Source: Pseudomonadota bacterium
GTDB lineage: Bacteria > Pseudomonadota > Alphaproteobacteria > Caulobacterales > Parvularculaceae
Reading direction: 5' to 3'
Assembly: GCA_039818345.1 (NCBI GenBank)
Contig: JBCBUC010000009.1
Coordinates: forward strand, 46,549 to 110,548
Length of the DNA stretch: 64,000 nucleotides
Numbering within the stretch: the first letter of the stretch is position 1; each line of letters opens with the position of its first letter. A program made the translations under genes and the position numbers. Positions 15,454 through 50,336 of this stretch are shown piece after piece. The notes under the pieces were generated by a model. It was not told the origin of the DNA, ran no database searches, and saw nothing but the letters and a program-made list of their open reading frames with translations.

Positions 15454-17082
15454 ATGAACGTGGGTTCAAGTAAAGAGTATGATGTTGTGGTGATCGGTGC
15501 AGGCCATAACGGCCTGACCAACGCTGCATTTCTCGCAAAATCAGGACTCGACGTTCTGGTCGTAGAAAAGAATGACCATATCGGCGGCGCGACTGTCAGC
15601 CGAGAACTCTATAGCGGCTGGAAATACTCCAACTGCTCGTACGTGTGCAGCCTTTTTCGCCCCGAGATCTATCAAGCACTCGATCTTGGCCACCATGGCT
15701 TAGAAGTTGTTCCTCTCCAGGGCGGGATTACCTTTAAGCAGGATGGTGACTTTTACGGAAACTATCATCACCACGAGGTGCGCCGCCGCGAGATCGCTCG
15801 TCATTCTCAACGCGATGCCGATGCCGTTATCCGTTTTGATGCAGATCTTATGAAATGGTGTCGCCTGATCCGCGGCTTGTTGATGCGAACGCCGCCTGAT
15901 CCCGGGACGTTCAAACCACGCGATTTCATGGAACTCGCCTTCCTTCTCAAAAAATTCTATGAACTCTCAGAGTCTCAGCTATATGAATTCATACGATTTT
16001 TTACAATGTCGATTGCGGAATACCTAGAAGAGTATTTCGAAAGTGACGTGGTGCTGGCTCATTACTCTGGGGGCAGTATTATTGGAACGGGCCTCGGTGT
16101 TTATTCACCGGGTACGGCCTATGTTCTGCTACACCATGCCATGGGTGACGTCGACGGTAGCGTCGGTTCATGGGGGTTTGCCAAAGGTGGAATGGGATCA
16201 GTGTCCGGAGCTATCGCTTCCGCCTATCAATCCTTTGGTGGTGAGATCCGGACAAGCGCAGAAGTCACATCGATCGATGTGCAATCGGGCGAAGCGCAAG
16301 GTGTTGTGCTTCAATCGGGTGAGGTTATCCGTGCCCGGCAAGTGGTTTCGAACCTCGATGTCAAGCGCACCTATCTTGGCATTATGGATGAAAAGCATCT
16401 GCCTGATGAGGTGATTAAGCGCGCGAAAAACTATAAAATTCGCGGCTCATCGGGGAAACTGAACATCGCGCTCGACGGGATGCCAGAGTTCCCCGCCCTG
16501 CCGAAAGGCTCGCCGCTCACTCTTGGGCATATGCACTTCAGCGATACGCTCGAGCGTCTCGAGCGGGCCTATGATGACTGGAAAGACCAGCGTTGGTCTT
16601 CTGATCCTTACACGGATACTTTGATACCGACGCAATTTGATCCATCAATGGCACCGCCGGGCAAGCATATGATGACAGTCTTTGTGCAGTACTGCCCCGC
16701 CGATATTGAAGGTGGCTGGACCGACGAAAAACGTGATACTTTCGGCCAAACAGTGATTGATCAAATATCCGAATATAGCCCGAACTTTAAAGACCTTATT
16801 CTTCATGCGGAAATTAGAACGCCGCGAGAACTCGAAGCAGAAGTTGGCTTGACAGAGGGCAATATCTTTCAGGGTGAATTAACCTTGGACCAACTCCTCT
16901 TCAATCGCCCCTTCCCCGGCTACGCGCAATATCGTGGGCCGGTACGGAATATGTATATGTGCGGATCAACCACACACCCAGGCGGCGGCGTGATGGGCGC
17001 CCCGGGTGTCAACGCGGCGCGCGAAATTCTCAAGGACCTCAAACGCACCGATACCACCCCGGAGGATTTTGGCGATGACTAA
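15454..17082 (+). CDS. COG1233 (CrtI/PYROXD2-like) FAD oxidoreductase, 'alpha' type, cassette 1
   Basis: IGAGHNG, CSYVCS, EGNIFQGE, CGSTTHPGGGVMGAPG. Confidence 0.88.
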   Translation: MNVGSSKEYDVVVIGAGHNGLTNAAFLAKSGLDVLVVEKNDHIGGATVSRELYSGWKYSNCSYVCSLFRPEIYQALDLGHHGLEVVPLQGGITFKQDGDFYGNYHHHEVRRREIARHSQRDADAVIRFDADLMKWCRLIRGLLMRTPPDPGTFKPRDFMELAFLLKKFYELSESQLYEFIRFFTMSIAEYLEEYFESDVVLAHYSGGSIIGTGLGVYSPGTAYVLLHHAMGDVDGSVGSWGFAKGGMGSVSGAIASAYQSFGGEIRTSAEVTSIDVQSGEAQGVVLQSGEVIRARQVVSNLDVKRTYLGIMDEKHLPDEVIKRAKNYKIRGSSGKLNIALDGMPEFPALPKGSPLTLGHMHFSDTLERLERAYDDWKDQRWSSDPYTDTLIPTQFDPSMAPPGKHMMTVFVQYCPADIEGGWTDEKRDTFGQTVIDQISEYSPNFKDLILHAEIRTPRELEAEVGLTEGNIFQGELTLDQLLFNRPFPGYAQYRGPVRNMYMCGSTTHPGGGVMGAPGVNAAREILKDLKRTDTTPEDFGDD

Positions 17083-18628
17083 TCCGTCCTCTGTCTGTAT
17101 CATTGGCGGCGGCCATAACGGATTGATCTGCGCGATCATGCTTGCGAAAGCCGGTTTGCGCGTCACTGTTCTGGAAGCTAGAGCAAGCCTCGGCGGCGCC
17201 ATCGCGCCCCGCGCTTTCGCTCCAGGTTTCCAGGCGCCCGGGCTGGCCCATCACTTTGGTTCTCTCCACCCTAAGATCTTGAAAGACTTGGGCCTACCGC
17301 CAACGGGCGGGACGCCAGTCGACACCATCGCGCTCGATAACACTGGCGATCACCTGACACTTGGCGCAACGCAAGCGTCCGGTAATGGTCTAACGAGTCA
17401 AGACAAAGAGGCGTATACAGCCTTTAAAACTGACTACGCCAAGTTCGCCCAAGCCTTAGAGCCGCTGCTCCTCAACAAACCGCCTCGGCTTAAAGATATG
17501 GGCAGGGACGATCAATGGACGCTCGCGAAACTCGGGTGGTCGCTGCGATTTGGGCTGGGTGTGCCGTCCATGCGCGAGTTCCTTCGCGTCGGCGGTGCCA
17601 ATATATATGACGTACTCAATGAAATATTCGAGAGTGAACAACTCAAAGGCGCGATTGCCGTTGATGCGGTGATGGGGCACCACCTCGCTCCACGCACGCC
17701 GACGAGCGTTCTTCCGTTCTTGCTGCGGCTCTTCGGTGAGAGTCATAGCGAAAGAAGTATCATGACGGGCGAAGGTAGCAACCTTTCAGCGCAACTCGAA
17801 AAACTAGCATTATCGTCAGGCATCGAACTGAGAACAGAAACGAAGGTGGAAACAATCGTCGTCACCGATGGGCGCGCAGCCGGTGTCGTCATTGAGGGAG
17901 GAGAGAGGGTTGATGCCGATCTTGTGGTCTCGAACATCGATGCAAAGTCGACCTTCCTGAGACTGACGGGTCCTGCCAATTTGGACGCAATGTTCACCCA
18001 CCGCATCAGCAAAACACGGACAAATGGCAATGTTGCGAAGCTTCACCTTGGTCTGTCGACGTTACCGACATTCCAGGGTCTTTCTTCCGACCAGTTAAGA
18101 CATAGAATGCTGATCGCTCCTGACATGCGGTTCATCGAGCGCGCCTTCAACCACGCAAAATATGGTGAGTATTCCGAAGATCCCGTTTTGGAGATCACTT
18201 TACCCAGCCTTGGTGATCCGTCCCTTGCACCTCAGGGGAAACACGTGATGTCGATATCGGCGAGCTTTGCCCCCTACCACCTGAAAGAAGGCTGGGAACA
18301 AGGCCGGACAATATTCCGTAAAATCATCATATCAGCCATTGAAAAGTTCGCGCCAGGACTGGAAGCATCAGTAGAAGCAGAGGACTTTCTAAGTCCCGCT
18401 GATATTGAACAAGACTATGGAATTTCCGGCGGGCACTGGCATCACGGTGAAATGACCATCGATCAAGCGTTCATGATGCGCCCCATCCACGGAACCGCGC
18501 AATACAACACGCCGATCGATAATCTCTACTTATGCGGAGCTTCTGCTCACCCAGGAGGCGGCGTCACCGGAATACCAGGATGGAACGCGGCAAAGAGAAT
18601 CCTCTCTCTTCACCAGGAGCGTGGCTGA
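17075..18628 (+). CDS. COG1233 FAD oxidoreductase, 'beta' type, cassette 1
   Basis: IGGGHNG, GGHWHHGE, CGASAHPGGGVTG. Overlaps the alpha gene by 8 bp. Confidence 0.88.
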   Translation: MTNPSSVCIIGGGHNGLICAIMLAKAGLRVTVLEARASLGGAIAPRAFAPGFQAPGLAHHFGSLHPKILKDLGLPPTGGTPVDTIALDNTGDHLTLGATQASGNGLTSQDKEAYTAFKTDYAKFAQALEPLLLNKPPRLKDMGRDDQWTLAKLGWSLRFGLGVPSMREFLRVGGANIYDVLNEIFESEQLKGAIAVDAVMGHHLAPRTPTSVLPFLLRLFGESHSERSIMTGEGSNLSAQLEKLALSSGIELRTETKVETIVVTDGRAAGVVIEGGERVDADLVVSNIDAKSTFLRLTGPANLDAMFTHRISKTRTNGNVAKLHLGLSTLPTFQGLSSDQLRHRMLIAPDMRFIERAFNHAKYGEYSEDPVLEITLPSLGDPSLAPQGKHVMSISASFAPYHLKEGWEQGRTIFRKIIISAIEKFAPGLEASVEAEDFLSPADIEQDYGISGGHWHHGEMTIDQAFMMRPIHGTAQYNTPIDNLYLCGASAHPGGGVTGIPGWNAAKRILSLHQERG

Positions 18629-19824
18629 TGACCCTTCATAACTTCAACAAAGTGCTTGAGCCATCGCCCTTTGACGCCCAACTGCGTGCGCAAATGCAGA
18701 CAGAGAACTGGGCCGGTTGGAATGGATACCTCACACCGCGCATCGCTGATACACTGGCCTCGGAGTATTTCGCCGTTCGAAGCGCATGCTCCGTGCTCGA
18801 TCTCACGCCGATGGAGAAATACCGGATTACAGGACCGGATGCCGGCGCGTTTCTCAACCGATTGGTCACGCGCGATATCGCCAAATTAAAGGTGGGGCGT
18901 GTTGGCTATGCCATCTGGTGCAATGACGAAGGGAAAGTCATTGACGACGGAACAATTTTCCATCTTGGCGACAATGATTATCGTCTGTGTGCACAACACC
19001 ACCAACTAGACTGGCTTTTGATATCAAGCATCGGATTTGATGTCGCAATCGCCAAAGAAACCCACGATATCGCAGCCCTATCTGTCCAGGGCCCCACCTC
19101 TTATTCTGTCCTATCGCAAGCGGGGATCGCAGGATTGGATGATCTCAAACCGTTTGGGATTCGCCACACAACATTGAATGGGTTTGATATCACCGTCTCA
19201 CGAACAGGGTTCACGGGTGATCTTGGATACGAATTGTGGACTGATCCTGAGAATGCGACCAAAATGTGGGACGCGATCTTCGCGGTCAAGGATCGCGGTC
19301 TTTATGACGTACGACTCATCGGTCTCGATGCGCTAGAAATGGTCCGTGTTGAGGCTGGATTTTTGATGCCCGGCTGGGATTTCAATACCGCAGAAACAAC
19401 TGTCCGTGCGGATCATGATCGATCGCCGTTTGAGTTGGGCCTTGACTGGACTGTCACCTTTGACAAACCAAATTTCACCGGCAAACGGGCATTGATGGCC
19501 GAGCGTCAGCGCCCTGCGAAGCGAAAGCTGTTGAAACTGGTGCTCGAAGGAAACAAGCCGCCCGTTGGTTCCTTTATCTTTAAGGGTAAAAAGGGCAGCC
19601 AAACTGGCGCGGTTATGGCGCAGATTTGGTCGCCTGTCCTGAAACGTTGCTTGGCAATTGCGGATATTGATTTTAAATCAGGACAACAACCGCAAAACCT
19701 CTGGGCCGAGATTTACTACCAGAAAGAACTGAAGTGGCATGTGAAATGGGCCAAATGCGATGTCGTCAACGGCCCTTTTTGGAGCAATCCCCGCCGAACG
19801 GCCACGCCGCCAGGTCGTTTCTAA
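18628..19824 (+). CDS. GcvT-like (folate-binding) aminomethyltransferase family protein, cassette 1
   Basis: EYFAVR..DLTPM, GKVIDDGT, SRTGFTGDLGYEL, RVEAG. TGATG coupling to the beta gene. Confidence 0.88.
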   Translation: MTLHNFNKVLEPSPFDAQLRAQMQTENWAGWNGYLTPRIADTLASEYFAVRSACSVLDLTPMEKYRITGPDAGAFLNRLVTRDIAKLKVGRVGYAIWCNDEGKVIDDGTIFHLGDNDYRLCAQHHQLDWLLISSIGFDVAIAKETHDIAALSVQGPTSYSVLSQAGIAGLDDLKPFGIRHTTLNGFDITVSRTGFTGDLGYELWTDPENATKMWDAIFAVKDRGLYDVRLIGLDALEMVRVEAGFLMPGWDFNTAETTVRADHDRSPFELGLDWTVTFDKPNFTGKRALMAERQRPAKRKLLKLVLEGNKPPVGSFIFKGKKGSQTGAVMAQIWSPVLKRCLAIADIDFKSGQQPQNLWAEIYYQKELKWHVKWAKCDVVNGPFWSNPRRTATPPGRF

Positions 19825-19848: not shown

Positions 19849-20643
19849 ATGCCGACAGTTGAAATCTATAGTCGCGACACTGACCCTGAAAAGATATCGC
19901 AAAGCCTTTTGAAGGATGGCGGCGTCATCGTGCGCCAGCAGGTCAACGACGATATGGCTGACGCTGTTCGGCAGGAACTGCGTCCGTCCTTTGAACGAGA
20001 AGGTCGGGACTACGAAAACGACTTCAACGGCTATAAAACGCTACGTCTCAGCGGTGTTCTCGCGCTTTCGCGAAAGTCTGCCGACCTTATCGCCCACCCT
20101 TTTGTGACGGCTGTTGCCGATAACATTCTGAAAAAAAACTGCGAAAACTATCGGATCGGAAGCAGCACGGCGATCGAAATTCTTCCCGGTGAAGAGGATC
20201 AGGTGCTTCATCGCGACGATGATATCTATCCTATACGGATGCCTGGGGTCGAGTTTCAAATTGCGGCGATGTGGGCGCTCGATGACTTCACTGCGGAGAA
20301 CGGTGGGACACGCATTGTCCCAGGAAGCCAAGACCTGCGAAGCACCGATGTGGTAAAGGAAGATGATATCGTTCAAGCCGTCATGCCAAAGGGCTCAGTT
20401 CTCTTTTATCTCGGATCAACCGTTCATGGTGGAGGCGCGAACAAGGCGACGTCCGCTCGCGCTGGTCTTGTGACGACCTATAGTCTGGGTTGGCTACGAC
20501 AAGAAGATAATCAGTATCTCTCCGTTCCTCGGGAGATAGCAGACAGCTACCCAGAACACGTCCGCCGACTGATGGGCTACCAGTCGCATGGTCCACTGGG
20601 TGTGTTCCCTGGCGATCCCGATGACCACTGGCATAAAGCCTAA
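19849..20643 (+). CDS. PhyH-like Fe(II)/2-oxoglutarate dioxygenase
   Basis: LHRDD (HxD), WALDDFTAENGGT, VHGGGAN (distal His), R of ARAG, LGWLRQE. Confidence 0.88.
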   Translation: MPTVEIYSRDTDPEKISQSLLKDGGVIVRQQVNDDMADAVRQELRPSFEREGRDYENDFNGYKTLRLSGVLALSRKSADLIAHPFVTAVADNILKKNCENYRIGSSTAIEILPGEEDQVLHRDDDIYPIRMPGVEFQIAAMWALDDFTAENGGTRIVPGSQDLRSTDVVKEDDIVQAVMPKGSVLFYLGSTVHGGGANKATSARAGLVTTYSLGWLRQEDNQYLSVPREIADSYPEHVRRLMGYQSHGPLGVFPGDPDDHWHKA

Positions 20644-20652: not shown

Positions 20653-22560
20653 TTAGAGCATTGAAAGCTCATTGACTGCGCGGTAGGCCGCGTCGATAGC
20701 AGCATCAACATAAGCGGTCGCCTGGCTGTCACTGTTGGCCATCGCGATACGCCCAATCATCGCCCTTCCCTCAATATGAGGTCCCTTTGATGCGCCAAAG
20801 GATGGATCATCTTCGAGCTCATTATATTCGTAGGCGTATCCATGCGGCCATCGGTTGACGGTGATCCCCGCAATATCACGCTCCGCATCAAATCCATAAG
20901 GACCCAGAGCACCAGTTAGCTGTTTGATGATCTCTTGCTCAAAATCGTCAAAGGTCAGCCCATAGAGCTTTTGTCGGCCAATGCGGCTTTGCTCTTTCAT
21001 CGTCAGCCCCAGGCCCGGACTAATCGGTGCATGATGCATCGTCGCGATCATTGGTTCATCTGAGGATGAAGGGTAGAAATAGTCACCCATTGACACGGGA
21101 AAATCGAGCGTGATCGAATGGAAAAAAGAACCTGGGCAGAAGATCCGATAAGTGCCCGCATTTTCAAAGGCGCGCCAGTTCCGTAGCGCTATGTTGGTGT
21201 AAACCAGCGGTGTTTTTTCCGCATACTCAATCGCCTTGCGCTGAGTCTCGGGCATTTGAGGGCAAAGATAGGGCGTGACGCTCGAATAACACGCCATGAC
21301 AACATTTTTTGCTCGAACCCGATGAGCCTCACCCTCTGAGACATAAACAACATCGACACTTCCGTCTTCAGTGTTGCGAACATCCACCGCCGTCGACGAC
21401 AAACGAATACGGACCGCGGCTCCGTCCTGGTCCAGAAGGCCGTAATTCGCCCTCGCGGTCACGACATCTTCCATGGTCGATCCCGGGATGCTGCCTGGGA
21501 TCAGTGATCTGACGAAAAGACGGGCAACACTCGCGTTCCCGTCGGGAAAATGAAAGATATAGGGTTCTTCTTCACCGACCGGCCCATCGGCACCTTCTCC
21601 TAACCCAAGGGCCTGCATCCCAGGCATGCCCAAGCGGTAGCCTTCAAGCGCCGAGAGTGCGTCCCACCCCATCGCCCATATCCCAACAAACTTCCGCCGA
21701 AGGAAGAGTGCTGCTTCCTCCGTGAGGCCCGCATAGGTCTGGACAAAGACCTCGTAGCTGGTTGAACGCATGATCTCGAACTTTTCTTCAAGCGAACGAC
21801 CATCGAGATAGTCCTCAGGGTCAATGACCAGGCGCTCCAGGCTGTTCCGCGACTCTTGGGACAGGGGGAATTGGGCGAGTGAGCTCCTAACTGAATCAAT
21901 ATCGGGCTCCTCACCGAACACCGGATCCAGCTGCGGGACCAAACGATCTTCGCCGTAGCTCTCGGCGTCGAAATAGACATGCTCTAACAGGTCACGATCG
22001 GAGAAGAATGATTGATCATAATACTGATAGAATTTATCTGTATCAATGCCAATTTCACGAATGGTCTTGGCAGCAATGTCAGAATAGCTGCCCGGCGCCT
22101 CGATCGTTTGACTTCCGCCATAACCAATCACCGTTCGTCCATCGATGGTGAACTCGTTACGTTTCGCATGCCCCCCAAAGTCGTCGTGATTATCCAGCAC
22201 CAAAATGCGCGCGTCCTGGCCAAACCGTTCGCGATAGAAGTAGGCAGCCGCGAGACCTGATAAACCGCCGCCCACCACAACGAGATCATAGTCACCGTCG
22301 GTTTGCTCGTCAGGTCGTGCCCATTTGCGTCCTGCCCATGATAATTGGTGGGCGACCTCAAACGAACCGGGATGGCTTCCTCGCATTCCCGTCAATGCCG
22401 GAGGATAAGGCCCGCTCGGTACCGCAGTGGCCGCATCAATGACGTCGACCGGCGCCTCACCACCACATCCAAGAACGCTTAGGGGTGTTGCGCCAACACC
22501 GATAGCGATCGGCAGACCGTTCAAAAAGTCTCGGCGAGAGATCTTGCTTAGCTTTGACAT
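20653..22560 (-). CDS. spdH: Spermidine dehydrogenase SpdH-like, Tat-exported, copy 1 (possible lipoprotein)
   Basis: SRRDFL Tat motif, YPPALTGMRGSHPG, VGGGLSGL, HDDFGGHAKRNEF, YIFHFPDGNAS, RWPHGY. These match the P. aeruginosa SpdH pattern as I recall it. Confidence 0.82.
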   Translation of the reverse strand: MSKLSKISRRDFLNGLPIAIGVGATPLSVLGCGGEAPVDVIDAATAVPSGPYPPALTGMRGSHPGSFEVAHQLSWAGRKWARPDEQTDGDYDLVVVGGGLSGLAAAYFYRERFGQDARILVLDNHDDFGGHAKRNEFTIDGRTVIGYGGSQTIEAPGSYSDIAAKTIREIGIDTDKFYQYYDQSFFSDRDLLEHVYFDAESYGEDRLVPQLDPVFGEEPDIDSVRSSLAQFPLSQESRNSLERLVIDPEDYLDGRSLEEKFEIMRSTSYEVFVQTYAGLTEEAALFLRRKFVGIWAMGWDALSALEGYRLGMPGMQALGLGEGADGPVGEEEPYIFHFPDGNASVARLFVRSLIPGSIPGSTMEDVVTARANYGLLDQDGAAVRIRLSSTAVDVRNTEDGSVDVVYVSEGEAHRVRAKNVVMACYSSVTPYLCPQMPETQRKAIEYAEKTPLVYTNIALRNWRAFENAGTYRIFCPGSFFHSITLDFPVSMGDYFYPSSSDEPMIATMHHAPISPGLGLTMKEQSRIGRQKLYGLTFDDFEQEIIKQLTGALGPYGFDAERDIAGITVNRWPHGYAYEYNELEDDPSFGASKGPHIEGRAMIGRIAMANSDSQATAYVDAAIDAAYRAVNELSML

Positions 22561-22693: not shown

Positions 22694-24193
22694 CTAGGAC
22701 ATGGCCGGGAAGCTGAGCTCCGCACCCGATCGGATACTGGTTGGCCACCGGCCGGTCACCGTCTTCATACGTGTGAAGAAGCGCACACCTTCTGGACCAT
22801 ACATGTGATGATCACCGAACAACGATTTTTTCCATCCACCGAAAGAATAGAACGCCAACGGAACAGGAAGAGGAACGTTCACACCGACCATGCCGATATT
22901 GGCCTCACGGGTGAAGGCCCGCGCCGCATCACCGTCACGGGTGAAGATGCATGTTCCGTTACCATACTCATGACTTTGAACAAGGTTGACGGCCTCATCG
23001 TAGGATTGAGTCCGAACACAGACGAGCACCGGACCAAATATCTCATCTGTATAGACACTCATATCAGGCGTGACACGATCAAGAAGCGTCGGCCCACACC
23101 AAAAACCATCTTCATAACCTTGGCCTGGTTGGTAGGTGCGGCCATCAAGCACGACATCCGCGCCAGCGGCTTCACCTTCACCGATATAGTTTTTCACCTT
23201 GGCGGCATGGGCGGCGGTGATCAGGGGACCCATTTCATTATCGCGGTCCATCCCGTCACCCACTTTGATCGTCTGGGCTTTCTCAGCGATCGCGTTAACA
23301 AGAGCGTCAGCTGTCTGATCGCCCACAGCCACGGCCACGGACAAGGCCATGCAACGCTCGCCCGCTGATCCATAAGCTGCGCCAATCATCGCATCGACGG
23401 CCTGATTAAGATCCGCGTCAGGCATAATAATGGCATGATTTTTCGCGCCGCCAAGCGCCTGAACACGCTTGCCATATTCAGTTCCCTTACGGTGGATATA
23501 TTCCGCCACCGGCGTCGATCCGACAAAGCTGATGGCATCAACATCAGGATGCTCAAGAAGCCGGTCGACAGCGACCTTGTCACCGTGAACAACGTTGAAG
23601 ACGCCATCCGGCAAACCCGCCTCTTTAAAGAGCTCGCCCAAAATGGCGCTGACGGATGGATCCCGCTCACTAGGTTTAAGGATATAGGTGTTCCCGCACG
23701 CGATGGCGATCGGCGCTGTCCAGAGGGGTACCATGGCCGGAAAATTGAACGGGGTGATGGCGGCGACAACACCCACCGGATGGCGGCTGTTAAAGCAATC
23801 GATCCCTGGTCCAACTTGTTGTGAATAGTCGCCCTTCAGAAGTTCAGGAATGCCGCATGCGTACTCCACCACTTCAAACCCGCGCGTCAGTTCGCCCAAA
23901 GCATCGGACCAGACTTTCCCATGCTCCTGCACAATCGCCTGGCAAAGACGCTCGCGATTTTGAGTGAGGAGCTCGCGGAACCGGAACATGATGGCGACTC
24001 GCTTCATGATCGGCGTATCAGCCCAAGCGGTAGAGGCGTCTTTGGCAACCTTCACGGCGGCATCGACATCGTCCGAGGCGGCGAGCCTAACATGGCGCAC
24101 GACTTCGCCCGTCGCGGGGTTAAAGATCGGCGCGGAGTTGTCGCTAGCACCAGAATAGACTTCGCCACCGACAAAGTGTTCAACAGTCTGCAT
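22694..24193 (-). CDS. mmsA: CoA-acylating (methyl)malonate-semialdehyde dehydrogenase (MmsA/BauB)
   Basis: ITPFNFPAMVP, KPSERDP, FVGSTP, LGGAKNH, GERCMA, EIFGP, GNGTCIFT, VNVPLPVP. Confidence 0.92.
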   Translation of the reverse strand: MQTVEHFVGGEVYSGASDNSAPIFNPATGEVVRHVRLAASDDVDAAVKVAKDASTAWADTPIMKRVAIMFRFRELLTQNRERLCQAIVQEHGKVWSDALGELTRGFEVVEYACGIPELLKGDYSQQVGPGIDCFNSRHPVGVVAAITPFNFPAMVPLWTAPIAIACGNTYILKPSERDPSVSAILGELFKEAGLPDGVFNVVHGDKVAVDRLLEHPDVDAISFVGSTPVAEYIHRKGTEYGKRVQALGGAKNHAIIMPDADLNQAVDAMIGAAYGSAGERCMALSVAVAVGDQTADALVNAIAEKAQTIKVGDGMDRDNEMGPLITAAHAAKVKNYIGEGEAAGADVVLDGRTYQPGQGYEDGFWCGPTLLDRVTPDMSVYTDEIFGPVLVCVRTQSYDEAVNLVQSHEYGNGTCIFTRDGDAARAFTREANIGMVGVNVPLPVPLAFYSFGGWKKSLFGDHHMYGPEGVRFFTRMKTVTGRWPTSIRSGAELSFPAMS

Positions 24194-24213
24194 ATCGATG
24201 TTCCTTGTATGAA

Positions 24214-41787: not shown

Positions 41788-43539
41788 ATGTTTATCTTCT
41801 TTGCGGTCGGCAATTTTGCTGGCCGTACGGTGAAGAATGCAGACGATTATTTCGTTGCTGGGCGCCGGGCACCGACGATATTGATCCTTGGTACCTTGGT
41901 TGCGAGCGTATTCAGCTCGACGATCTTCCTTGGCGAGGCGGGCTTTACCTATGACGGCCAAATGGGGCCGTATATGCTCTTTCCGGGGATCACGACCGCC
42001 GGGTACATCTACGGCGCGCTTCTGTTTGGGCGATATCTGAGACGCAGCCGCGCGCCAACGGTGGCGGAGTTTTTTGGCCAACGCTTTAACAGCCGGCGGG
42101 TGCAGCAGCTTTCTGGGGCGATCATCATCGGTGCATTGAGCATTTATTTGCTTGTGGTGACACAAGGCGGCGCCCTTCTGCTCTCCGACCTGACCGGCCT
42201 TTCCTACACGCAAAGCCTGGTTACCGCCTGGCTCGCCTACACGTTTTTTACGATCTATTCGGGTTCGAAAGGGGTGATCCTTACCGACACGCTGATGTTT
42301 CTCCTGTTCGCGGTGGCGACAGTGGCATTCTCCGTGGTCATCATTGGCGATTTAGGCGGTGTTTCGACAGCGATCGAGCAGATGGCGCAGATCGAGACGA
42401 AGCCTGATATCGCGTCATGGCACGGTATCGTCGGTGTTGGGACTGAATGGGCAACCCCGATCGATTACCTGATCTGGGCCATCACAATCGATATGGCCTG
42501 GAGCGTGGTCTACGCGGTGAGCCCCTGGCAGTCGAGCCGCCACCTTATGGCTCGCAATGAACATGTCGTGATCCGTGCGTCGATTTACACCGCCCTCGCC
42601 GTGATTCTCTTGCAAGCGCTGATTTACGGTGTGGGCGGCTTGATTAACCTCTACAATCCGAACATCACCCCATCAGAGACGGCCATGATCTGGGCGGCAA
42701 AAAATCTTGTTCCGGATTACCTCGGAGCGATCTTACTCGCAGGAATCATGGCCGCAGCCCTTTCCTCAGCATCAACCTTTCTCTCGCTCGTCGGATTCAG
42801 CGCGAGCAACGACATTCTTGCCCGAAAACGACCATTGAACATCCGGACAACGCGTATCTTGATGCTGATTGTTGGTGCTGTGGCGCTGATCACCAGCTTT
42901 TTCTTCCCGCCCAATATTTTCTGGCTGATGCTGTTCGTTGGCACGGTGTTCACGTCGTCATGGGGACCTGTTGCGTTCATGAGCGTGTGGAGCAAACGGA
43001 TTACCGCGGACGCTGCATTTTGGGGCATGGCCACCGGATTTCTCTTCAACGTCGTTCCGTCCGGTCTCGAATATGTCGGCATCATCGATTTGCCTCACTA
43101 TTTCAGTGCAACGATTATCGGTGTGGCAGCTAGCCTCATTACCATCGTGTTGATCTCACGTGCTGGTGAAGTGACAGTCGAGGAAACTGCGTTCAGGCTT
43201 CGCCTTCATGAAACACCGAGCGAAGATCGCGACGCGACCAAGGCGCGAACAACAATGATCGCGGCCTTTGCTTTGGTCGCCTACGGTCTGACAATGCCAT
43301 TCCTAACACTGCGATTTTACGTTATGCCCTATCAACGCGGTGCCGGAGAGCTTGCGGCCGATGGCGGGATCAATTGGCAAACAGGCGAAGCTCTTTTGGC
43401 GCTCACGTCACCGCTCATCTATGTTCCACTCGGCCTTTACGGCGCATACTTGATTTGGCGAGGCTACCACCCCCGCGCGGCGAAACCGCACGATCAGAAC
43501 CCTGGGTTCAGTGAGGAGCTCTCTGGTGAAAAGACGTAA
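41788..43539 (+). CDS. Sodium:solute symporter (SSS) family transporter
   Basis: DDYFVAGRRAP, GIMAAALSSAST, ~13-14 TM. The true N-terminus may extend to 41755. Confidence 0.92.
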   Translation: MFIFFAVGNFAGRTVKNADDYFVAGRRAPTILILGTLVASVFSSTIFLGEAGFTYDGQMGPYMLFPGITTAGYIYGALLFGRYLRRSRAPTVAEFFGQRFNSRRVQQLSGAIIIGALSIYLLVVTQGGALLLSDLTGLSYTQSLVTAWLAYTFFTIYSGSKGVILTDTLMFLLFAVATVAFSVVIIGDLGGVSTAIEQMAQIETKPDIASWHGIVGVGTEWATPIDYLIWAITIDMAWSVVYAVSPWQSSRHLMARNEHVVIRASIYTALAVILLQALIYGVGGLINLYNPNITPSETAMIWAAKNLVPDYLGAILLAGIMAAALSSASTFLSLVGFSASNDILARKRPLNIRTTRILMLIVGAVALITSFFFPPNIFWLMLFVGTVFTSSWGPVAFMSVWSKRITADAAFWGMATGFLFNVVPSGLEYVGIIDLPHYFSATIIGVAASLITIVLISRAGEVTVEETAFRLRLHETPSEDRDATKARTTMIAAFALVAYGLTMPFLTLRFYVMPYQRGAGELAADGGINWQTGEALLALTSPLIYVPLGLYGAYLIWRGYHPRAAKPHDQNPGFSEELSGEKT

Positions 43540-45448
43540 CACTGATCATTATCTTGGGATGGACCGTGCGATCACGCGCCGGGACTTTGTCCATGGGGCA
43601 AGCCTTCTAGCTAGCGGTACAATGGCGGCCAGCGCTTTCGGTGGAAGCCTGGCGCGCGACGGTGGGCCGGCCACCTATCCTCCGGCCATGACAGGCCTGC
43701 GCGGTAATCATGTTGGGTCTTTTGAAGTCGCCCACCAACTGGGCCGCGAAGGTCGCACCGATTGGAGGACCCCGACCAAACCCAGCGAAGACTATGATCT
43801 TGTGGTTGTCGGCGGCGGCCTCAGCGGGTTGTCTGCCGCCTATTTTTTCCTCCAGGACAATCCATCAGCAAGCATCCTTATTCTCGATAATCATGATGAT
43901 TTCGGCGGCCACGCGAAACGCAACGAGTTTCAGATCGGTGATCGCACTTTGATCGGGTACGGCGGAAGTCAAACTCTGCAAGAACCTTCCGGGTACAGCG
44001 GCATCGTCAAAAAGCTTTTGCGGGATCTCAGCGTTGATGTGGATCGGTTTGAAACCGCCTATGATCAAGACTTCTATAAGCGCAACGGACTAAGGGGTGG
44101 CCTGTTCTTCGGCGAGGAAAGTTGGGGCGAGAACCGAACGATACCATTCGATATCGGTTACTTCACTGACTATATTCCGGTGGCCCCGTCAGACATGACC
44201 GCCGATGAAGCAGTTAAGCTGATCCCTGTTTCAGATGAAGGGCGCACGGAGTTGCTCCGTCTTCTAAACCTCAAAGAGAACCTGCTGACGAGTGTTCGAG
44301 GCGAAGACGAACTTTGGGAATTTCTCTCAAACATCAGCTACCGTGACCTGCTGACGAAGCATTTTGGCATCGGTCATCCCGACGTGCTCCGTGTTTTCCA
44401 AGACCTCACCGGGGACGCTGGTGCCGGAATAGATTCTGTGACGGCCGCGACCGCGCTTTATTACACCGGCCTTCCTGGGTGGGAAGCTGCAGGTCTTCCC
44501 CAGGCCGAGGCGACAGAACCTTATATTCATCACTTCCCGGATGGAAATGCATCCGTCGCACGACTTTTGGTGCGGGCCATGATCCCGGGTGTTGCACCCG
44601 ACGGAACGATGGACGAACTCGTGACCACACGGTTTGACTATAGCAAACTTGATGTGGCGGACTCTGCTGTCCGTCTACGGCTTGAAAGCACCGTGGTTCA
44701 TGTGGAGCATGACGGAGATCCCGCGACATCAGAGCGCACGCTCGTCAAATACATGAAAGACGGTCAAGGCTTTCTCATCAGTGCAACGAATTGCGTTCTC
44801 GCCTGTAACCATTCAATCGTCCCCTATTTGTGCCCCAGCCTTCCCAAGTCTCAACGCGAAGCTCTGTCATTCCAGGAAAAAACACCTATCCTCTACACGA
44901 GCGTCGCCCTAAGCAATTGGCGAGCATGGAAAGAGCTCGGGATCGGCGCCGTTGTTGCTCCGAGCAGTTACTATGTGCACGCATTGCTCGATTTTCCTGT
45001 CAGCATGGGAGACTATTCATTCTCTGCGAATCCGGACGAACCGATTATCGTCCATATGGAACGTTTTCCGCATTTGTATGATCAAGACCTATCGGTACGC
45101 GAACAACACCGCCTTGGCCGCTATCAATTGTTGGGCACACCGTACGAGACGATCGAACGCAACACCAGGGCTCAACTCGCTGGCATGCTCGGAGAAGCAG
45201 GATTTGATCCTGCTAAGGATATTCAAGGGATCACTGTCAATCGCTGGGCACACGGATATGCCTATTATTACTCCCCGCTGTTTGATGAGATGTATGACGA
45301 TTGGGACGATGCACGGTACCCGCACATTCAGGCGCGGCAACCTTTTGGTCGCATAGCCTTTGCGAATGCTGATTCCGCCGCTAACGCGATGTTCGAATCA
45401 GCTGTCGAAGAAGCCCACCGAGCCGTCTCCGAACTCAAGTCTCGATAG
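43526..45448 (+). CDS. spdH: Spermidine dehydrogenase SpdH-like, Tat-exported, copy 2
   Basis: TRRDFV Tat motif, YPPAMTGLRGNHVG, HDDFGGHAKRNEF, YIHHFPDGNAS, RWAHGY. GTG 43526 with GAGGAG SD. Confidence 0.8.
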   Translation: MKRRNTDHYLGMDRAITRRDFVHGASLLASGTMAASAFGGSLARDGGPATYPPAMTGLRGNHVGSFEVAHQLGREGRTDWRTPTKPSEDYDLVVVGGGLSGLSAAYFFLQDNPSASILILDNHDDFGGHAKRNEFQIGDRTLIGYGGSQTLQEPSGYSGIVKKLLRDLSVDVDRFETAYDQDFYKRNGLRGGLFFGEESWGENRTIPFDIGYFTDYIPVAPSDMTADEAVKLIPVSDEGRTELLRLLNLKENLLTSVRGEDELWEFLSNISYRDLLTKHFGIGHPDVLRVFQDLTGDAGAGIDSVTAATALYYTGLPGWEAAGLPQAEATEPYIHHFPDGNASVARLLVRAMIPGVAPDGTMDELVTTRFDYSKLDVADSAVRLRLESTVVHVEHDGDPATSERTLVKYMKDGQGFLISATNCVLACNHSIVPYLCPSLPKSQREALSFQEKTPILYTSVALSNWRAWKELGIGAVVAPSSYYVHALLDFPVSMGDYSFSANPDEPIIVHMERFPHLYDQDLSVREQHRLGRYQLLGTPYETIERNTRAQLAGMLGEAGFDPAKDIQGITVNRWAHGYAYYYSPLFDEMYDDWDDARYPHIQARQPFGRIAFANADSAANAMFESAVEEAHRAVSELKSR

Positions 45449-45576: not shown

Positions 45577-45921
45577 TTAGCTGACGATAAAGTAGACTTT
45601 CCGAACCTTCTCGACGACCTCCGCTGTCCCCTTCCAACCCTTAGGGAAAATCCAGCTATCGCCCGCTTTGATCTCGGTAACCTCGCCCGATTGCGACGTC
45701 AGAACCCAATGCCCTTCAAGGAGATGGCAAAATTCCATAATCTCTAGATCGAGCTCGAGCTTACCCGGCTCGCACTCCCACGTGCCAGCCGTGTAATTGC
45801 GTTCCAAAAAGAAGCTTTTGTCTGTCTGCAGGGGAAGCTGCCCGATCGGCGTGCCAAACGAAGGGGCTTTTTCGAGGCCGGTGAGTGTCGCACATTGATG
45901 TTGAACGCTGATCTCTGGCAC
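45577..45921 (-). CDS. DUF861/EutQ-like cupin (no signal peptide)
   Basis: GTWECEPG, EFCHLLEG, FPKGWKGT, RKVY. AGGAGG SD. Confidence 0.88.
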   Translation of the reverse strand: MPEISVQHQCATLTGLEKAPSFGTPIGQLPLQTDKSFFLERNYTAGTWECEPGKLELDLEIMEFCHLLEGHWVLTSQSGEVTEIKAGDSWIFPKGWKGTAEVVEKVRKVYFIVS

Positions 45922-45945: not shown

Positions 45946-47157
45946 CTAGTTCTGAATCCAGACTGGCGGAGGCGGCGTTGCTTTTGCGCGTTTTGGCGCC
46001 CAAAAAACATCTTCCGTCACCCTACATTTGACCACTTTCCACAGTGGGCGGATCTCTTTCATGTAAGAGATCTCCGCATAGATATCGCGTTTCAAATATG
46101 ACGGTTTCACCATCGCCAATGCGATATTGGCCTTTACCACCGGCGACCACATCGCTGAGGTCACGTAACCAATCTCTTTAGTGCATCTTTTGTCGGCATA
46201 AAGAGTTGAACCCTCAGCTGGTTTGTTACCTTCGATATCAAGTTTTGTGAGGATGTATTCTGGTCCCTTCTTTTTTTCCTCAAGAAGAGCGGCCCGCCCG
46301 TTGAAATGGGGTTTTTTGAAATCAACTAGCCACCCTAAGTTAAGGTCAAAGGGCGTTTGATCATGCCGAAAGTGCACAGTTTTCAATGCTTCAGCAAACT
46401 CAACATACGGAAGAATAAATCCTGCCTCGAGGCGCGCCATGGCAGTAGCTGCCTCGCCGTAAGGTTGGATACCATAATCCTCACCAGCAGCGTAAAGAGC
46501 ATCCCACAGTTGAAGCCCGAGATGAGCAGGGACCCAAAGTTCATAACCAAGATCGCCGGTAAAACCCGTCCGTGACACCATCAAGGTGTCACCTTCGAAG
46601 GGATAGTGCTTCACGCCAAAGGGCTTGAGCATTTCAACGCCCTCAAGACCCATCCGCTGCAAAACCTCACAGGTCGCCGGACCTTGAAACGATAACGCAC
46701 CGATATCATCCGTCTGATCGGTAATCGTAACGTTCTCAAAGCCAAGGCAAGCTTGTCGAAGCCACGCGATGCTAGGGCTACCACAACTTAAGAAAAATTT
46801 ATCGTCGTCGAGTTTGAAAATCGTTCCATCGTCGATCAAACGACCTTCGTCTGTACACCAGCACACATAGGTGACCCGGTTCTTTTTCAACTTCGAGACA
46901 TCGCGCGTGACCATGCGGTTGAGCATCGCCTCGGCGTCTGGCCCTTCGACAAGGTATTTCTGCATCGGTGTAATATCATACGTTCCGCATAGGTTGCGAA
47001 TGCAGAAATACTCGAACTCTGTATCGTAATAGTGGTCGGCGAACTTATAGCCGTTCCAGCTCTCCCACGACTCTCTGATGTTGAGCACTGCTTGGCGAGG
47101 ATAAAAGGGCGATAGTTTCAGCCGCTCGCCCGCAAATGGATCTGGTGTGTCCGTCAT
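45946..47157 (-). CDS. GcvT-like aminomethyltransferase family protein, cassette 2
   Basis: WNGY, EYFCIR..DITPM, GRLIDDGT, SRTGFTGDLGYEL, RLEAG. Confidence 0.88.
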   Translation of the reverse strand: MTDTPDPFAGERLKLSPFYPRQAVLNIRESWESWNGYKFADHYYDTEFEYFCIRNLCGTYDITPMQKYLVEGPDAEAMLNRMVTRDVSKLKKNRVTYVCWCTDEGRLIDDGTIFKLDDDKFFLSCGSPSIAWLRQACLGFENVTITDQTDDIGALSFQGPATCEVLQRMGLEGVEMLKPFGVKHYPFEGDTLMVSRTGFTGDLGYELWVPAHLGLQLWDALYAAGEDYGIQPYGEAATAMARLEAGFILPYVEFAEALKTVHFRHDQTPFDLNLGWLVDFKKPHFNGRAALLEEKKKGPEYILTKLDIEGNKPAEGSTLYADKRCTKEIGYVTSAMWSPVVKANIALAMVKPSYLKRDIYAEISYMKEIRPLWKVVKCRVTEDVFWAPKRAKATPPPPVWIQN

Positions 47158-47175
47158 CGTCTTTGCTCTCAGCGC

Positions 47176-48795
47176 TTAGTCGTCGTAACAATCGTCTTCT
47201 GGGACAGTGTTACCCAGCTTCAGATCACGGAGGATTTCGCGTGCAGCGTTCGCTCCACAGGCGGAGGAAACGCCGCCGCCTGGGTGTGTCGATGATCCGC
47301 ACATATACATTTTATCGACTGGCATGCGGTACTGCGCATAACCCGGGAATGGCCTGTTGAAGAGGAGTTGGTCAATGGTCAGCTCGCCTTGGAAGATATT
47401 GCCTTCGGTAAGACCGATCTCATTTTCAATTTCGTGCGGTGTCCGCACTTCCATATGCACAATCAAGTCTTTGAAACCAGGGCTATAACGCTCAATCTTG
47501 TCGATCACCGTTTGGCCAAAAGCGTCACGCTTTTCAGGTGTCCACGGCCCATCGGCAAGCTCTGGTGGGCAATACTGAATAAAATTGGACATCCAGTGTT
47601 TTCCTGGCGGCGCCACTGTTGGATCCCAAGCAGACGGAATGACAGACTCAATGAACGGATCATCTGACCACGTCCCTCGTTTCCACGCGTCATACGCCTT
47701 CTCAAGCGTCCGAAGTGAACCCACAAAGCCCTGTCCCCCGCGGTTGATATAGCGATTATCAGGGACGTTGTTGAACTTGGGCAGCCCCGACAGGGCAATG
47801 TTCACCTTGCCTGACGAACCACGAATTTTGAAATTCTGCGCCTTTTTTAGGATCCCAGGAGGTAGGTCCTTCGGATCCATGATCTTGGTGAAGGTTCGTT
47901 TTGCATCGAGATTAGAGACGACAATTTTGCCATCAATCTCATCACCATTCTCGAGCACAACTCCGTTCGCCACGCCGTCCTTCACACGGATCTGGGAAAC
48001 ACCGGCATTCGTCCGTATCTCACCGCCATGCTCCATCAGCGCGCCGGCAAGCGCTTTCGAAATAGAGCCCATGCCTCCGCGAGCAAGGCCCCACGCACCA
48101 ATATTGCCGTCCACGTCTCCCATCACATGGTGGAGAAGAATATAGGCCGAACCCGGTGAATCGATTCCTAGGGCCGTCCCAATAATGCCAGGTGTCGCCA
48201 TGACAGCTGCGATGAAATCGTTCTCGAAGTAATCGTCGAGAAACTCCGCGGCACTCATGGTGAAGAACCGAATATACTCGTAGATCTCAGTCTCGCCTAG
48301 CTCGCCAAAGGTCTTGGCGAGGAATATCAGCTCATTGATGTCACGAATACGGAATTTTGTCGGGTCAGGCGGCGTCCGAAGCAGTGTCTTCCGTATCAAC
48401 GTCGAATACCGATCAAGGTCCGCTAGCAAGCGGAACATCGCATCAGCGTCATGCGGAGAGTGACGACGCAGCTCGTTATAGGCAGGACCTTCGGCGGTGT
48501 AAGAGGTCAGTGTTTCGCCGTTATCGCCAAACGCCACGGTACCGAGATAAGGCACCAACATCAGCCCGTGCTTGGTCAAGTCAAGATCGCGATGGATGAC
48601 CTGGCGCATCATGCTGCATACGTATGAACAGCTCGAATAGAGGAATCCATCTTCGAGTTCGCGCGAGACCGCGGCGCCGCCAATATACTCGTTCTTTTCG
48701 ACGACAACGACGTCGAGCCCGGCCTTTGCTAGGTAAGCTGCGTTGGTCAAGCCATTGTGACCTGCACCGATAATAATCGCGTCATACGTCTTCAT
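47176..48795 (-). CDS. COG1233 FAD oxidoreductase, 'alpha' type, cassette 2
   Basis: IGAGHNG, CSYVCS, EGNIFQGE, CGSSTHPGGGV. Confidence 0.88.
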   Translation of the reverse strand: MKTYDAIIIGAGHNGLTNAAYLAKAGLDVVVVEKNEYIGGAAVSRELEDGFLYSSCSYVCSMMRQVIHRDLDLTKHGLMLVPYLGTVAFGDNGETLTSYTAEGPAYNELRRHSPHDADAMFRLLADLDRYSTLIRKTLLRTPPDPTKFRIRDINELIFLAKTFGELGETEIYEYIRFFTMSAAEFLDDYFENDFIAAVMATPGIIGTALGIDSPGSAYILLHHVMGDVDGNIGAWGLARGGMGSISKALAGALMEHGGEIRTNAGVSQIRVKDGVANGVVLENGDEIDGKIVVSNLDAKRTFTKIMDPKDLPPGILKKAQNFKIRGSSGKVNIALSGLPKFNNVPDNRYINRGGQGFVGSLRTLEKAYDAWKRGTWSDDPFIESVIPSAWDPTVAPPGKHWMSNFIQYCPPELADGPWTPEKRDAFGQTVIDKIERYSPGFKDLIVHMEVRTPHEIENEIGLTEGNIFQGELTIDQLLFNRPFPGYAQYRMPVDKMYMCGSSTHPGGGVSSACGANAAREILRDLKLGNTVPEDDCYDD

Positions 48796-50336
48796 TTTAA
48801 AATCCGCCGCGCAGCGTTGTGACCAGCAGCGCCCATGATGCCGCCTCCTGGGTGACTGCCGGCACCGCAGAGATAAAGTCCGGGAATTGGCGTTGCATAT
48901 TGTGCGGCACCATGGGTGGGCCGCATCATCATCATCTGCTCAAGCGCGAGCTCGACATGATGCCAATGCCCTCCGGTTGCCCCGTATTGCTGCTCAATAT
49001 CGAGGGGCGTGAGAAGCTCTGAACCTTTGATCAAGGCGCCAAGACCAGGAATGTGCCGCTCTAGTGTTGCTAACACACGATCCTTGAAGGCATTGCGCGC
49101 TTCATCCGACCACCCTGTTTTTTCATCGTACGGCGCATACATAACGTGGGCGGACAGAACATGCTGACCCTGGGGAGCAACAGATGGATCGTGCAGGCTT
49201 GGGAAGGCAATTTCCATCACCGGGCTTTCCGAGGCCTCACCGTATTTCGCTTCATCGTAAGCAAATTCGATCGCATCCATATCAGGTGCAATGATCATCC
49301 GACCCTCAAGGGAATCGACGCCAGGAATCGTCGGCAGCTCGCTTAGAGCCGCGTGAAACTTCGCAACATATCCCTTCGAACGGAGACGACTGATCCGGTT
49401 GGCAAATTGGATCTCCAAATTGCCGGCACCGACGAGATCCAAGAAGGTGGTCTTAGGATCAGCGGAAGAAACAACAAGCGGCGCTGATATCGTCTCACCA
49501 CCAACAAGTTCGACCCCGACGGCAGCGAGCCCCTGCTCACTACCTTCGATCGTGACGTTTTTCACCGGCGCGTCAGTTTTGATGGTGACGCCTGCAGCCT
49601 TTGCGCAAGCGGCAAGGGCGTCAACAAGGGCAGAAACCCCGCCCTTAGGCGTCACATAATCGCCCCCACTTTCACCATTCATCCGTAGCAAGAGCGGCAA
49701 GACCGCGTTGTTGGGCGAACGCGGGGCCATTTTCGAACCAATCAGTCCGTCCCAGCACAACAGGGCTTGCAGCCGAGGGTCTTCGAAGCACTCACTCACA
49801 AGGTCACGCATCGGAAGCGTCAGGACACGAACCAGTTCGCTCATGTCCTCACCGCCCAAGCCGCGCATTTTCATGAAGGCTTGCGCGTAGACACCGGAAT
49901 CTCGAAGACCGGCAAGGCCAATGCGCGGGAGTGTCTTCTCCCAGATCACGGAGATTGCTTTACCGTAGCGCAAAAGCTTTTGCCGATATTCCGCATAAGC
50001 GTCGGTATCAGATCCTCCGACACCCCACACCTGGTCACCATGCAACGAAATAGGCGCCGCATCTTCCGCTAGGCCGATCGTTGGGCATGAAGGGTTAAAA
50101 GACAATCCGTACTGCTGAAGGTTCAAAGCGCCCGCCACCACGGACGAAAAATGGGTCACACTGTGCACCGGCGCTGCGCGAAAACCGTCGCTGAATTCCC
50201 GCGATGATGCTAATCCGCCGACAGACGGAGAAGCCTCGACAACAAGAACTCGTCGGCCAGCTTTTGCTAGGAGAGACGCGCAGACAAGGCCATTATGGCC
50301 AGCTCCAATTACGATCGCATCGTATTGCGTCATCAA
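48792..50336 (-). CDS. COG1233 FAD oxidoreductase, 'beta' type, cassette 2
   Basis: IGAGHNG, GGHWHHVE, CGAGSHPGGGIMG. ATGA overlap with the alpha gene. Confidence 0.88.
   Translation of the reverse strand: MMTQYDAIVIGAGHNGLVCASLLAKAGRRVLVVEASPSVGGLASSREFSDGFRAAPVHSVTHFSSVVAGALNLQQYGLSFNPSCPTIGLAEDAAPISLHGDQVWGVGGSDTDAYAEYRQKLLRYGKAISVIWEKTLPRIGLAGLRDSGVYAQAFMKMRGLGGEDMSELVRVLTLPMRDLVSECFEDPRLQALLCWDGLIGSKMAPRSPNNAVLPLLLRMNGESGGDYVTPKGGVSALVDALAACAKAAGVTIKTDAPVKNVTIEGSEQGLAAVGVELVGGETISAPLVVSSADPKTTFLDLVGAGNLEIQFANRISRLRSKGYVAKFHAALSELPTIPGVDSLEGRMIIAPDMDAIEFAYDEAKYGEASESPVMEIAFPSLHDPSVAPQGQHVLSAHVMYAPYDEKTGWSDEARNAFKDRVLATLERHIPGLGALIKGSELLTPLDIEQQYGATGGHWHHVELALEQMMMMRPTHGAAQYATPIPGLYLCGAGSHPGGGIMGAAGHNAARRILK

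Follow-up and report, generated by a model that had tools for sequence, protein, structure and literature searches.

Dimethylglycine dehydrogenase and oxidase (DMGDH and DMGO), sarcosine dehydrogenase (SARDH) and 4-methylaminobutyrate oxidase are enzymes that use a flavin to oxidise an N-methyl group and a GcvT-fold domain to trap the one-carbon unit on tetrahydrofolate (THF). To our knowledge, folate-coupled oxidative N-demethylation has so far come only from enzymes with the DAO fold (DMGDH, SARDH, sarcosine oxidases) and from Tdm. Here we examine a 64,000-nucleotide stretch of a Parvularculaceae genome (GenBank assembly GCA_039818345.1, contig JBCBUC010000009.1, positions 46,549 to 110,548; hereafter the window, whose own numbering we use for its features), which carries two copies of a three-gene unit encoding two paralogous flavoproteins, alpha and beta, and a GcvT-fold protein, T. 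From sequence and gene order, we consider it fairly likely that alpha-beta oxidises an N-methyl group and that T captures the carbon as methylene-THF, which would make each trio a split dimethylglycine dehydrogenase analogue on the CrtI/PYROXD2 fold. The proposed likeness to the known enzymes lies in this chemistry and in the GcvT-fold folate-binding signature, which is present in T. The differences are in architecture: the flavoprotein of DMGDH, SARDH and DMGO is of the DAO family (PF01266), whereas alpha and beta are CrtI/PYROXD2-like (PF01593) over their full length, their match to DAO being confined to the ~40 N-terminal residues of the dinucleotide fold; the THF domain of those enzymes is fused, whereas T is a separate gene in all of the loci considered below; and the trio has two paralogous flavoprotein subunits. 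The gene for 4-methylaminobutyrate oxidase has folD and purU as cluster neighbours on plasmid pAO1, and purU is also found in the island that holds the trios.

An earlier note on this DNA had placed the trio at 15454-19824 on the forward strand and at 45946-50336 on the reverse strand, and both open reading frames (ORFs) and Pfam domains agree. In trio 1, alpha1 (15454..17082, +, 542 amino acids (aa)), a PYROXD2/CrtI-like flavin adenine dinucleotide (FAD) flavoprotein with Pfam Amino_oxidase and NAD_binding_8 matches, is followed by its paralogue beta1 (17075..18628, +, 517 aa), an FAD flavoprotein with the same matches, and by T1 (18628..19824, +, 398 aa), a stand-alone GcvT-fold protein predicted to bind folate (PF01571, E = 9e-56). 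Trio 2 comprises beta2 (48792..50336, −, 514 aa from a TTG start, with an ATG one codon further in) and alpha2 (47176..48795, −, 539 aa), both again matching Amino_oxidase and NAD_binding_8, and T2 (45946..47157, −, 403 aa), a GcvT-fold, predicted folate-binding protein with PF01571 and the C-terminal barrel PF08669; in Pfam the GCV_T domain of T1 and T2 is found at E of about 1e-56. Pairwise BLASTP (alpha1/alpha2 59%, beta1/beta2 43% and T1/T2 43% identity; any alpha against any beta 31-33%, with alpha1 and beta1 at 31%), together with the ORF scan, bears out the gene orders given previously, alpha-beta-T in trio 1 and beta-alpha-T in trio 2. The couplings that had been described can all be read in the sequence: alpha1 and beta1 overlap by 8 bp (ATGACTAA), beta1 and T1 by 1 nt in TGATG, and beta2 and alpha2 by 4 bp in ATGA; alpha2 and T2 are separated by a gap of 18 bp. 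The motifs WNGY, DDGT and SRTGFTGDLGYEL, said to be common to the T proteins, are indeed present in both T1 and T2.

Relatives of alpha1 numbered 285, with one genome per species scanned, and the best 80 loci were analysed. They come from marine members of the Alphaproteobacteria (Erythrobacter, Hellea, Parvularculaceae, Kordiimonadaceae, Emcibacteraceae) and Gammaproteobacteria (SAR92/Porticoccaceae, Halieaceae, Woeseiaceae, OM182). The expectation that the trio should co-occur in other genomes holds, with translational coupling: nearly all 80 loci preserve alpha-beta-T together, beta and T following alpha wherever the contig is long enough, and because the same trio stands in the same order in nearly all of them, the arrangement is not due to chance. 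Of 41 loci where it could be measured, 39 retain the 8-bp overlap of alpha1 and beta1; beta1 and T1 overlap by 4 or 1 nt in 24/37 loci with a spacing that never exceeds 12 bp, and beta2 and alpha2 are spaced by 10 bp or less across loci. Alpha proteins share 69-97% identity with their counterpart in the window, beta proteins 42-79% and T proteins 49-89%, and alpha2 orthologues in 19 loci share 74-85%. Alignments of all three subtypes contain 216 invariant columns for alpha versus 74 for beta; alpha is the slowly evolving subunit and beta the faster-evolving one. Many SAR92-type genomes carry both trio types in tandem, in the order alpha1 beta1 T1 ... beta2 alpha2 T2. Of 300 evenly sampled Pseudomonadota genomes, 32 have a member of the subfamily and about 8 an adjacent alpha-beta pair, a lower bound because four candidates were scored per genome. 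Among 1.84 billion cluster representatives, 1974 clusters (50% identity) match alpha1 at E <= 1e-30.

The cassette had been reported as duplicated; it is in fact triplicated. A scan of the organism's own assembly (3.36 Mb, 99% complete) returned six GCV_T matches and seven COG1233-type matches, among them a third trio on another contig (C34, our locus L083, positions 8311-12742 within a region of interest at 5454-13416), whose genes overlap in ATGA and GTGA. Its neighbours are a class-III aminotransferase, divergent from it, a GbcA-like Rieske oxygenase and, after it, a TetR repressor of the BetI type. The three trios are roughly equidistant, at 55-59% identity for alpha, 36-43% for beta and 42-46% for T. 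A third flavoprotein subtype, Pyx3 (26630..28258, +; 37% identical to alpha1), stands alone within a PuuR-SMR operon in the window. No long DAO-fused GcvT enzyme of the DMGDH, SoxA or Tdm type was found in the genome, all six GCV_T matches being short and stand-alone. They include the canonical gcvT of a gcvT-gcvH-gcvPA operon on contig C13 (505 bits against a cut-off of 459). Another, on contig C39 (L084, 7757-8950), encodes a fifth stand-alone GcvT-like protein of 397 aa that has no COG1233 neighbour and lies downstream of an OmpR/EnvZ-type two-component pair.

Public annotation calls T only an "aminomethyltransferase family protein". The previous description of T as GcvT-like stands, in that the signature residues of the GcvT/Tdm folate domain are kept and the protein is distinct from the housekeeping GcvT: the DD pair, SRTGxTGDLGYE and RxEAG are invariant in 69 T-family sequences, and all are common to the genome's own GcvT. 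Identification of T1 and T2 as the housekeeping enzyme was rejected (143-146 bits against the TIGR00528 cut-off of 235.85); since they fall below this equivalog cut-off and the canonical operon lies elsewhere, on C13, T1-T3 are not the T protein of glycine cleavage. In NCBIfam, where all matches stay below cut-off, the C-terminal domain of Tdm ranks best and GcvT next. The match to the Tdm model (NF053776; 229-261 bits, cut-off 1100) covers only positions 388-763 of 763, and the best sequence match of T is again Tdm, at 148 bits, with T2 aligning to the THF domain of 9Q5A at E = 3e-42. Of the Tdm residues, R480 corresponds to Arg in T, F672 to Trp and K782 to Lys or Arg; the equivalent of F582 falls within a poorly aligned stretch. 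Further matches are to GcvT, SoxA, DMGO/DMGDH and DmdA, the THF domains of 1PJ5 and 4PAA being found at E between 1e-22 and 1e-24. The DmdA equivalog threshold is not reached (T1 105.6 and T2 146.7 bits, cut-off 410), nor is that of soxA (137-157 bits, cut-off 1164).

Two further systems are among the closest known. In Tdm the homologous domain binds THF with a Kd of about 149 nM and uses channelled formaldehyde to form methylene-THF (PMC13619132). The likeness to Tdm (PDB 9Q59/9Q5A) is confined to this THF domain, the best sequence match of T: in Tdm, a single fused chain, formaldehyde comes from a Zn-containing N-terminal domain without flavin, and that domain is absent from T (PMC13619132). 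Heterotetrameric sarcosine oxidase, SoxABDG, and N-methylglutamate dehydrogenase resemble the proposed enzyme as multi-subunit systems in which a GcvT-like THF site, in SoxA, stands beside an N-methyl-oxidising flavoprotein, and T matches the SoxA structures 1VRQ and 2GAG. T corresponds only to the GcvT part of SoxA, however, and the trio has no DAO subunit of the SoxB type; no gene for SoxB, SoxD or SoxG adjoins the trios, whether in the window or in the 80 loci.

The alpha family is known publicly only as "phytoene dehydrogenase-like protein". A role in carotenoid synthesis was considered and rejected for both flavoproteins, as both stay well under the cut-off of every model for CrtI, CrtO, CrtD and carotenoid isomerase (CrtI, TIGR02734, 107-137 bits against 238; CrtO, 219-262 against 1000), and no crt genes occur in the window or in the 80 loci. 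CrtI (E = 1e-15) and a desaturase resembling CrtD are their only sequence-level relatives in the PDB. As predicted by AlphaFold2 (pLDDT 88, pTM 0.90), alpha1 is nearest to 4REP (TM 0.74/0.82) and 4DGK, followed at 15-18% identity by monoamine oxidases, putrescine oxidase, the nicotine oxidoreductase NicA2 and cyclohexylamine oxidase; as modelled, alpha folds like CrtI-like and flavin amine oxidase proteins. The flavin motifs GxGHNG, Glu38 and HPGGG are invariant in alpha, beta and Pyx3, and at the position of N-I-F-Q in alpha, beta carries an invariant H-W-H-H block of its own. Because both the flavin motifs and this block are kept, we take beta to be a second, distinct flavoprotein, and rejected as a default the idea of a degenerate, decayed copy of alpha.

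A precedent for such a pair is limonene dehydrogenase CtmAB of Castellaniella defragrans, in which two COG1233 paralogues of ~550 aa, 27% identical and both required genetically, oxidise a methyl group (PMC4109377). Alpha and beta are likewise encoded as an adjacent, conserved pair of COG1233 paralogues (31% identical), and CtmAB, as a case of two such proteins jointly oxidising a methyl, supports our reading of them. The substrate of CtmAB differs, being the allylic C-methyl of a terpene, and its partners are a ferredoxin and a reductase rather than a folate protein (PMC4109377); ferredoxin partners of the CtmEF type are absent from the neighbourhood of the trio.

An animal relative of the family is PYROXD2, an orphan mitochondrial flavoprotein and a full-length homologue of alpha, beta and Pyx3; it differs in being encoded by one gene, for which neither a beta or T partner nor a reaction is known. 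Oyster, mayfly and choanoflagellate PYROXD2 are among the 1974 clusters that match alpha1. Alpha1-3 are 34-38% identical to animal PYROXD2 over their full length (E about 1e-97 to 1e-122), and to the oyster protein (P0296) 35-38% over about 545 residues (E 1e-114 to 1e-122; alpha1 35%); beta shares 28-34% with the animal proteins and 30-34% with P0296 (E 1e-68 to 1e-83). Pyx3, 39% identical to the oyster, mayfly and choanoflagellate sequences, is the closest paralogue to animal PYROXD2, and the animal proteins also share the blocks SYVxSLLRP and HPGGG. That PYROXD2 is genetically linked to methylated amines, as the earlier note stated, agrees with the literature: the locus controls human trimethylamine, dimethylamine and N-methylpipecolate levels, is also tied to asymmetric dimethylarginine, and ranks among the strongest metabolite quantitative trait loci (P < 1e-307 for a trimethylamine-like nuclear magnetic resonance signal) (PMC4564198).

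A link to formaldehyde and one-carbon chemistry had also been suggested, and genes for GFA, FrmA, FghA, formate dehydrogenase and PurU do travel or co-localise with the trio. In the window these are fghA and frmA for glutathione-dependent formaldehyde oxidation (55664..57654, −; TIGR02821 416 bits and TIGR02818 632 bits, both over cut-off), fdhD with the alpha, beta and gamma subunits of an NAD-linked formate dehydrogenase (58040..63778, −; TIGR00129, TIGR01591 at 903 bits, NuoF-like, PRK05988), and the 5' part of purU, encoding formyl-THF deformylase (63830..64000, +), which runs beyond the window and scores 418 bits against a cut-off of 223 (L086:179-1045). For the other genomes, all ORFs of the 80 loci were clustered without reference to the window and the commonest clusters annotated. 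A GFA gene (PF04828, glutathione-dependent formaldehyde-activating enzyme) was found in 21 loci, mostly directly after T1; it often accompanies the tandem trios of SAR92/Porticoccaceae.

The remaining surroundings of the two trios are those of a large polyamine-catabolism island. The trio-1 operon encodes, in order, a PuuA-like ligase, a class-III aminotransferase, a GNAT acetyltransferase directly upstream of alpha1 (14924..15427, +; Pfam and NCBIfam), alpha1, beta1, T1 and, directly downstream of T1, a PhyH-family Fe/2OG oxygenase (19849..20643, +; PF05721); a GntR/FCD regulator (11127..11876, −; Pfam) is divergent from it. The GNAT gene has the same position in seven alphaproteobacterial loci, and in L003-L005, the closest relatives, the PhyH gene likewise follows T1. 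This operon faces a convergent unit of SpdH1 (20653..22560, −), a spermidine dehydrogenase homologue with a twin-arginine leader (RRDFL motif) that matches P. aeruginosa SpdH (7D9F/7D9I) over its full length (residues 7-632, E = 8e-170), and, co-oriented with it, a malonate/methylmalonate-semialdehyde dehydrogenase and an AptA-type omega-aminotransferase (22694..25668, −; TIGR01722 688 bits and NF052567 635 bits, over cut-off). The latter two genes make up a complete predicted route for aminopropyl units via beta-alanine to acetyl-CoA. A second homologue, SpdH2 (43511..45448, +; 43% identical to SpdH1 over its full length), is convergent on trio 2 and closes an operon with an SSS transporter and a membrane protein (40818..41708, +) that has no Pfam match. 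Cluster c2, with members in 27 loci, shares 32% identity with this last product, whose homologue (287 aa) directly precedes beta2 in 15 of 22 loci. T2 is followed by a Cupin_3 protein (45577..45921, −; PF05899), copies of which, 69-75% identical, adjoin trios in 12 loci; upstream of trio 2 lie an adjoining AraC-type regulator with a SnoaL-like domain (50383..51261, −), a membrane protein and an MFS transporter (52216..53502, −; PF07690), whose homologues (46-69% identity) occur in about 25 loci and directly upstream of alpha1 in Woeseiaceae and others. The island also holds three PuuA-like ligases, two PuuB-like DAO oxidases, a PuuD-like amidotransferase, a PuuC-like dehydrogenase, an alanine dehydrogenase, a TonB-dependent receptor (TBDR), an AspH-like oxygenase, an unannotated 334-aa protein and a TPR-sulfotransferase.

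Several of these genes recur in Gammaproteobacteria, among them those for the TBDR, the TPR-sulfotransferase, the AspH-like protein and a 309-aa protein (52% identical to the product of 37431-38348 in the window), as well as SSS, MFS and MOSC proteins, alanine dehydrogenase, PuuA-, PuuB- and PuuC-like enzymes and SpdH. The first four form a sub-module (34113-40396 in the window, the unannotated protein being 309-334 aa long) that travels with trios at 34-53% identity and is also seen at L030, L058, L061 and other SAR92-type loci. Between the two trios, SAR92-type loci carry genes for a DUF3604 protein (654 aa, PF12228, 503 bits; L016:13436-15400, also L031, L034, L058, L061 and L072) and a long Cupin_3 protein, neither of which has a counterpart between the two trios of the window. 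SAR92 loci further have an extra stand-alone GcvT-like gene upstream of alpha1 (L024:1198-2499; also L011, L016, L031, L034 and L039), which adjoins a divergent PF12831 FAD_oxidored gene (433 aa); this may be a flavoprotein/folate pairing on another flavoprotein fold.

A palindrome resembling an operator, GTGATCAC, occurs nine times in the window where about one copy is expected, and seven of the nine copies lie in promoter regions (10988, 11093, 12007, 33939, 36649, 40519 and 40707). The copy at 12007 is in the promoter shared by the GntR gene and the trio-1 operon; the others are two upstream of a PuuC-like operon, one in the TBDR/AspH promoter, one at the start of a Cupin_3 gene, and two in the promoter of the sulfotransferase and membrane protein-SSS-SpdH2 units. 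The same 8-mer is intergenic in alphaproteobacterial loci that have a homologue of the GntR gene, and no copy precedes trio 2. The palindrome is probably the operator of the GntR regulator (11127-11876), and the shared site would therefore place the trio 1, TBDR and SpdH2 units in one regulon.

The earlier note had proposed a multi-subunit dimethylglycine dehydrogenase analogue on a CrtI-like fold, and the co-occurrence, the coupling, the folate signature, the PYROXD2 homology and the one-carbon genes all support that proposal, although the complex, the reaction and the electron acceptor are things we infer. Each trio would be one enzyme, composed of an alpha-beta heterodimer of paralogous FAD flavoproteins and a separate THF-binding T subunit, a reading favoured by the strict translational coupling of T to the two flavoproteins. 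Alpha would oxidise a C-H bond of an N-methyl group on a cytoplasmic amine to an iminium or carbinolamine, with beta serving as a second active site or as an electron relay; the one-carbon unit would pass to THF bound in T, giving 5,10-methylene-THF and the demethylated amine. Formaldehyde that escapes could be handled by GFA, FrmA and FghA, and the carbon would end as formate or CO2 via FolD-type steps, PurU and formate dehydrogenase. Several observations weigh against this proposal. No gene for an electron acceptor (electron-transfer flavoprotein, ferredoxin or cytochrome) is conserved beside the trio, and a Rosetta-stone search of the family's 150 best representatives turned up neither an alpha-T nor a beta-T fusion. 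Two of these representatives are long proteins, one with an unassigned C-terminal extension and the other, P0160 (816 aa), a fusion of a GFA domain (56-169) to a PYROXD2-like flavoprotein (264-806) that is 37% identical to alpha1; the latter speaks for the formaldehyde link, but only as a hint, as it is a single sequence on one Logan contig and may be an artefact of gene calling or assembly. SpdH lies within 8 kb of a trio in only about 13 of the 80 loci, for which reason a link to polyamines is contextual and not obligatory. T could also act alone, since DmdA and LigM demethylate without a flavoprotein.

This last point leads to a different division of labour, in which T is by itself a methyltransferase of the DmdA/LigM type that moves an S-, O- or N-methyl group to THF as 5-methyl-THF, while alpha-beta act on that substrate in a redox step of their own, earlier or later. 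DmdA, LigM and DesA belong to the GcvT family and need no flavoprotein, and T1 and T2 weakly match their models, but the scores (DmdA 105-147 bits, LigM/DesA 53-72) are well short of those for the Tdm C-terminal domain and GcvT (201-240). Strict coupling to two flavoproteins suits a single enzyme better, and the association with GFA and formaldehyde suits a one-carbon unit released oxidatively, at the formaldehyde level; we therefore regard an independent T as quite improbable. We give even less credence to the idea that alpha-beta acts as an oxidase of polyamines or secondary amines, or as a CrtI-like C-C desaturase, and forms longer aldehydes or unsaturated products, with T non-catalytic or unrelated. 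It would fit the structural neighbours of alpha1 (putrescine oxidase, monoamine oxidase, NicA2 and carotenoid desaturases) and the polyamine-catabolism surroundings, but it leaves aside a coupled folate one-carbon acceptor protein whose catalytic signature is kept in all trios and the co-localised one-carbon and formaldehyde genes, and for a desaturase there are no carotenoid genes nearby and the CrtI-family models score far below cut-off.

If alpha-beta-T is a folate-coupled N-demethylase, the three copies that this genome carries probably differ in the methylated amine they accept or act at successive demethylation steps. For trio 3, the GbcA-like Rieske oxygenase and BetI-type repressor beside it point to a betaine-type compound. 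Our leading guess for trios 1 and 2 is N-methylated aminopropyl or polyamine-derived fragments, on account of SpdH, the Puu-like enzymes, the beta-alanine route, the operator shared with the TBDR and the family's enrichment among marine bacteria associated with blooms. Diatoms build N-methylated long-chain polyamines into silica, and a more specific version of this guess, which we offer as speculation and think unlikely, makes trios 1 and 2 the N-demethylases of a pathway dedicated to such compounds: the polycation would enter via the TBDR, be cut in the periplasm by Tat-exported SpdH into N-methyl-aminopropyl units, and be imported in this form via SSS and MFS transporters and the 40818-41708 membrane protein; alpha-beta-T would then demethylate the units, passing the carbon to folate, and the remaining skeleton would go via beta-alanine to acetyl-CoA. 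The same mechanism might instead serve small free methylated amines or betaines (dimethylamine, N-methyl amino acids, betaine breakdown products), with the island as a general amine-catabolism locus and no specific tie to polyamines. The neighbours of trio 3, the scarcity of SpdH near trios in other genomes and the trimethylamine, dimethylamine and N-methylpipecolate associations of PYROXD2 are in keeping with this, but we doubt it, given that the trio-1 operator is common to the TBDR, sulfotransferase and SSS-SpdH2 promoters, that a PuuA-like ligase and an aminotransferase sit in the trio-1 operon, and that TBDR, TPR-sulfotransferase and c12 genes accompany trios in SAR92 too.

In the literature library that we searched, no paper describes an alpha-beta-T module. 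If the proposed reaction is true, the module would represent a second, unrelated flavoprotein scaffold for folate-coupled N-demethylation, and thus a new enzyme architecture, and would correct the annotations "phytoene dehydrogenase-like" and "aminomethyltransferase" now attached to its subunits. Its carriers include marine bacteria that are abundant and associated with blooms (SAR92/Porticoccaceae, Halieaceae, Woeseiaceae, Kordiimonadaceae and others), for which it would constitute a new marine route for the carbon and nitrogen of methylated amines. It would also provide a testable reaction, oxidative N-demethylation, for the orphan human PYROXD2.

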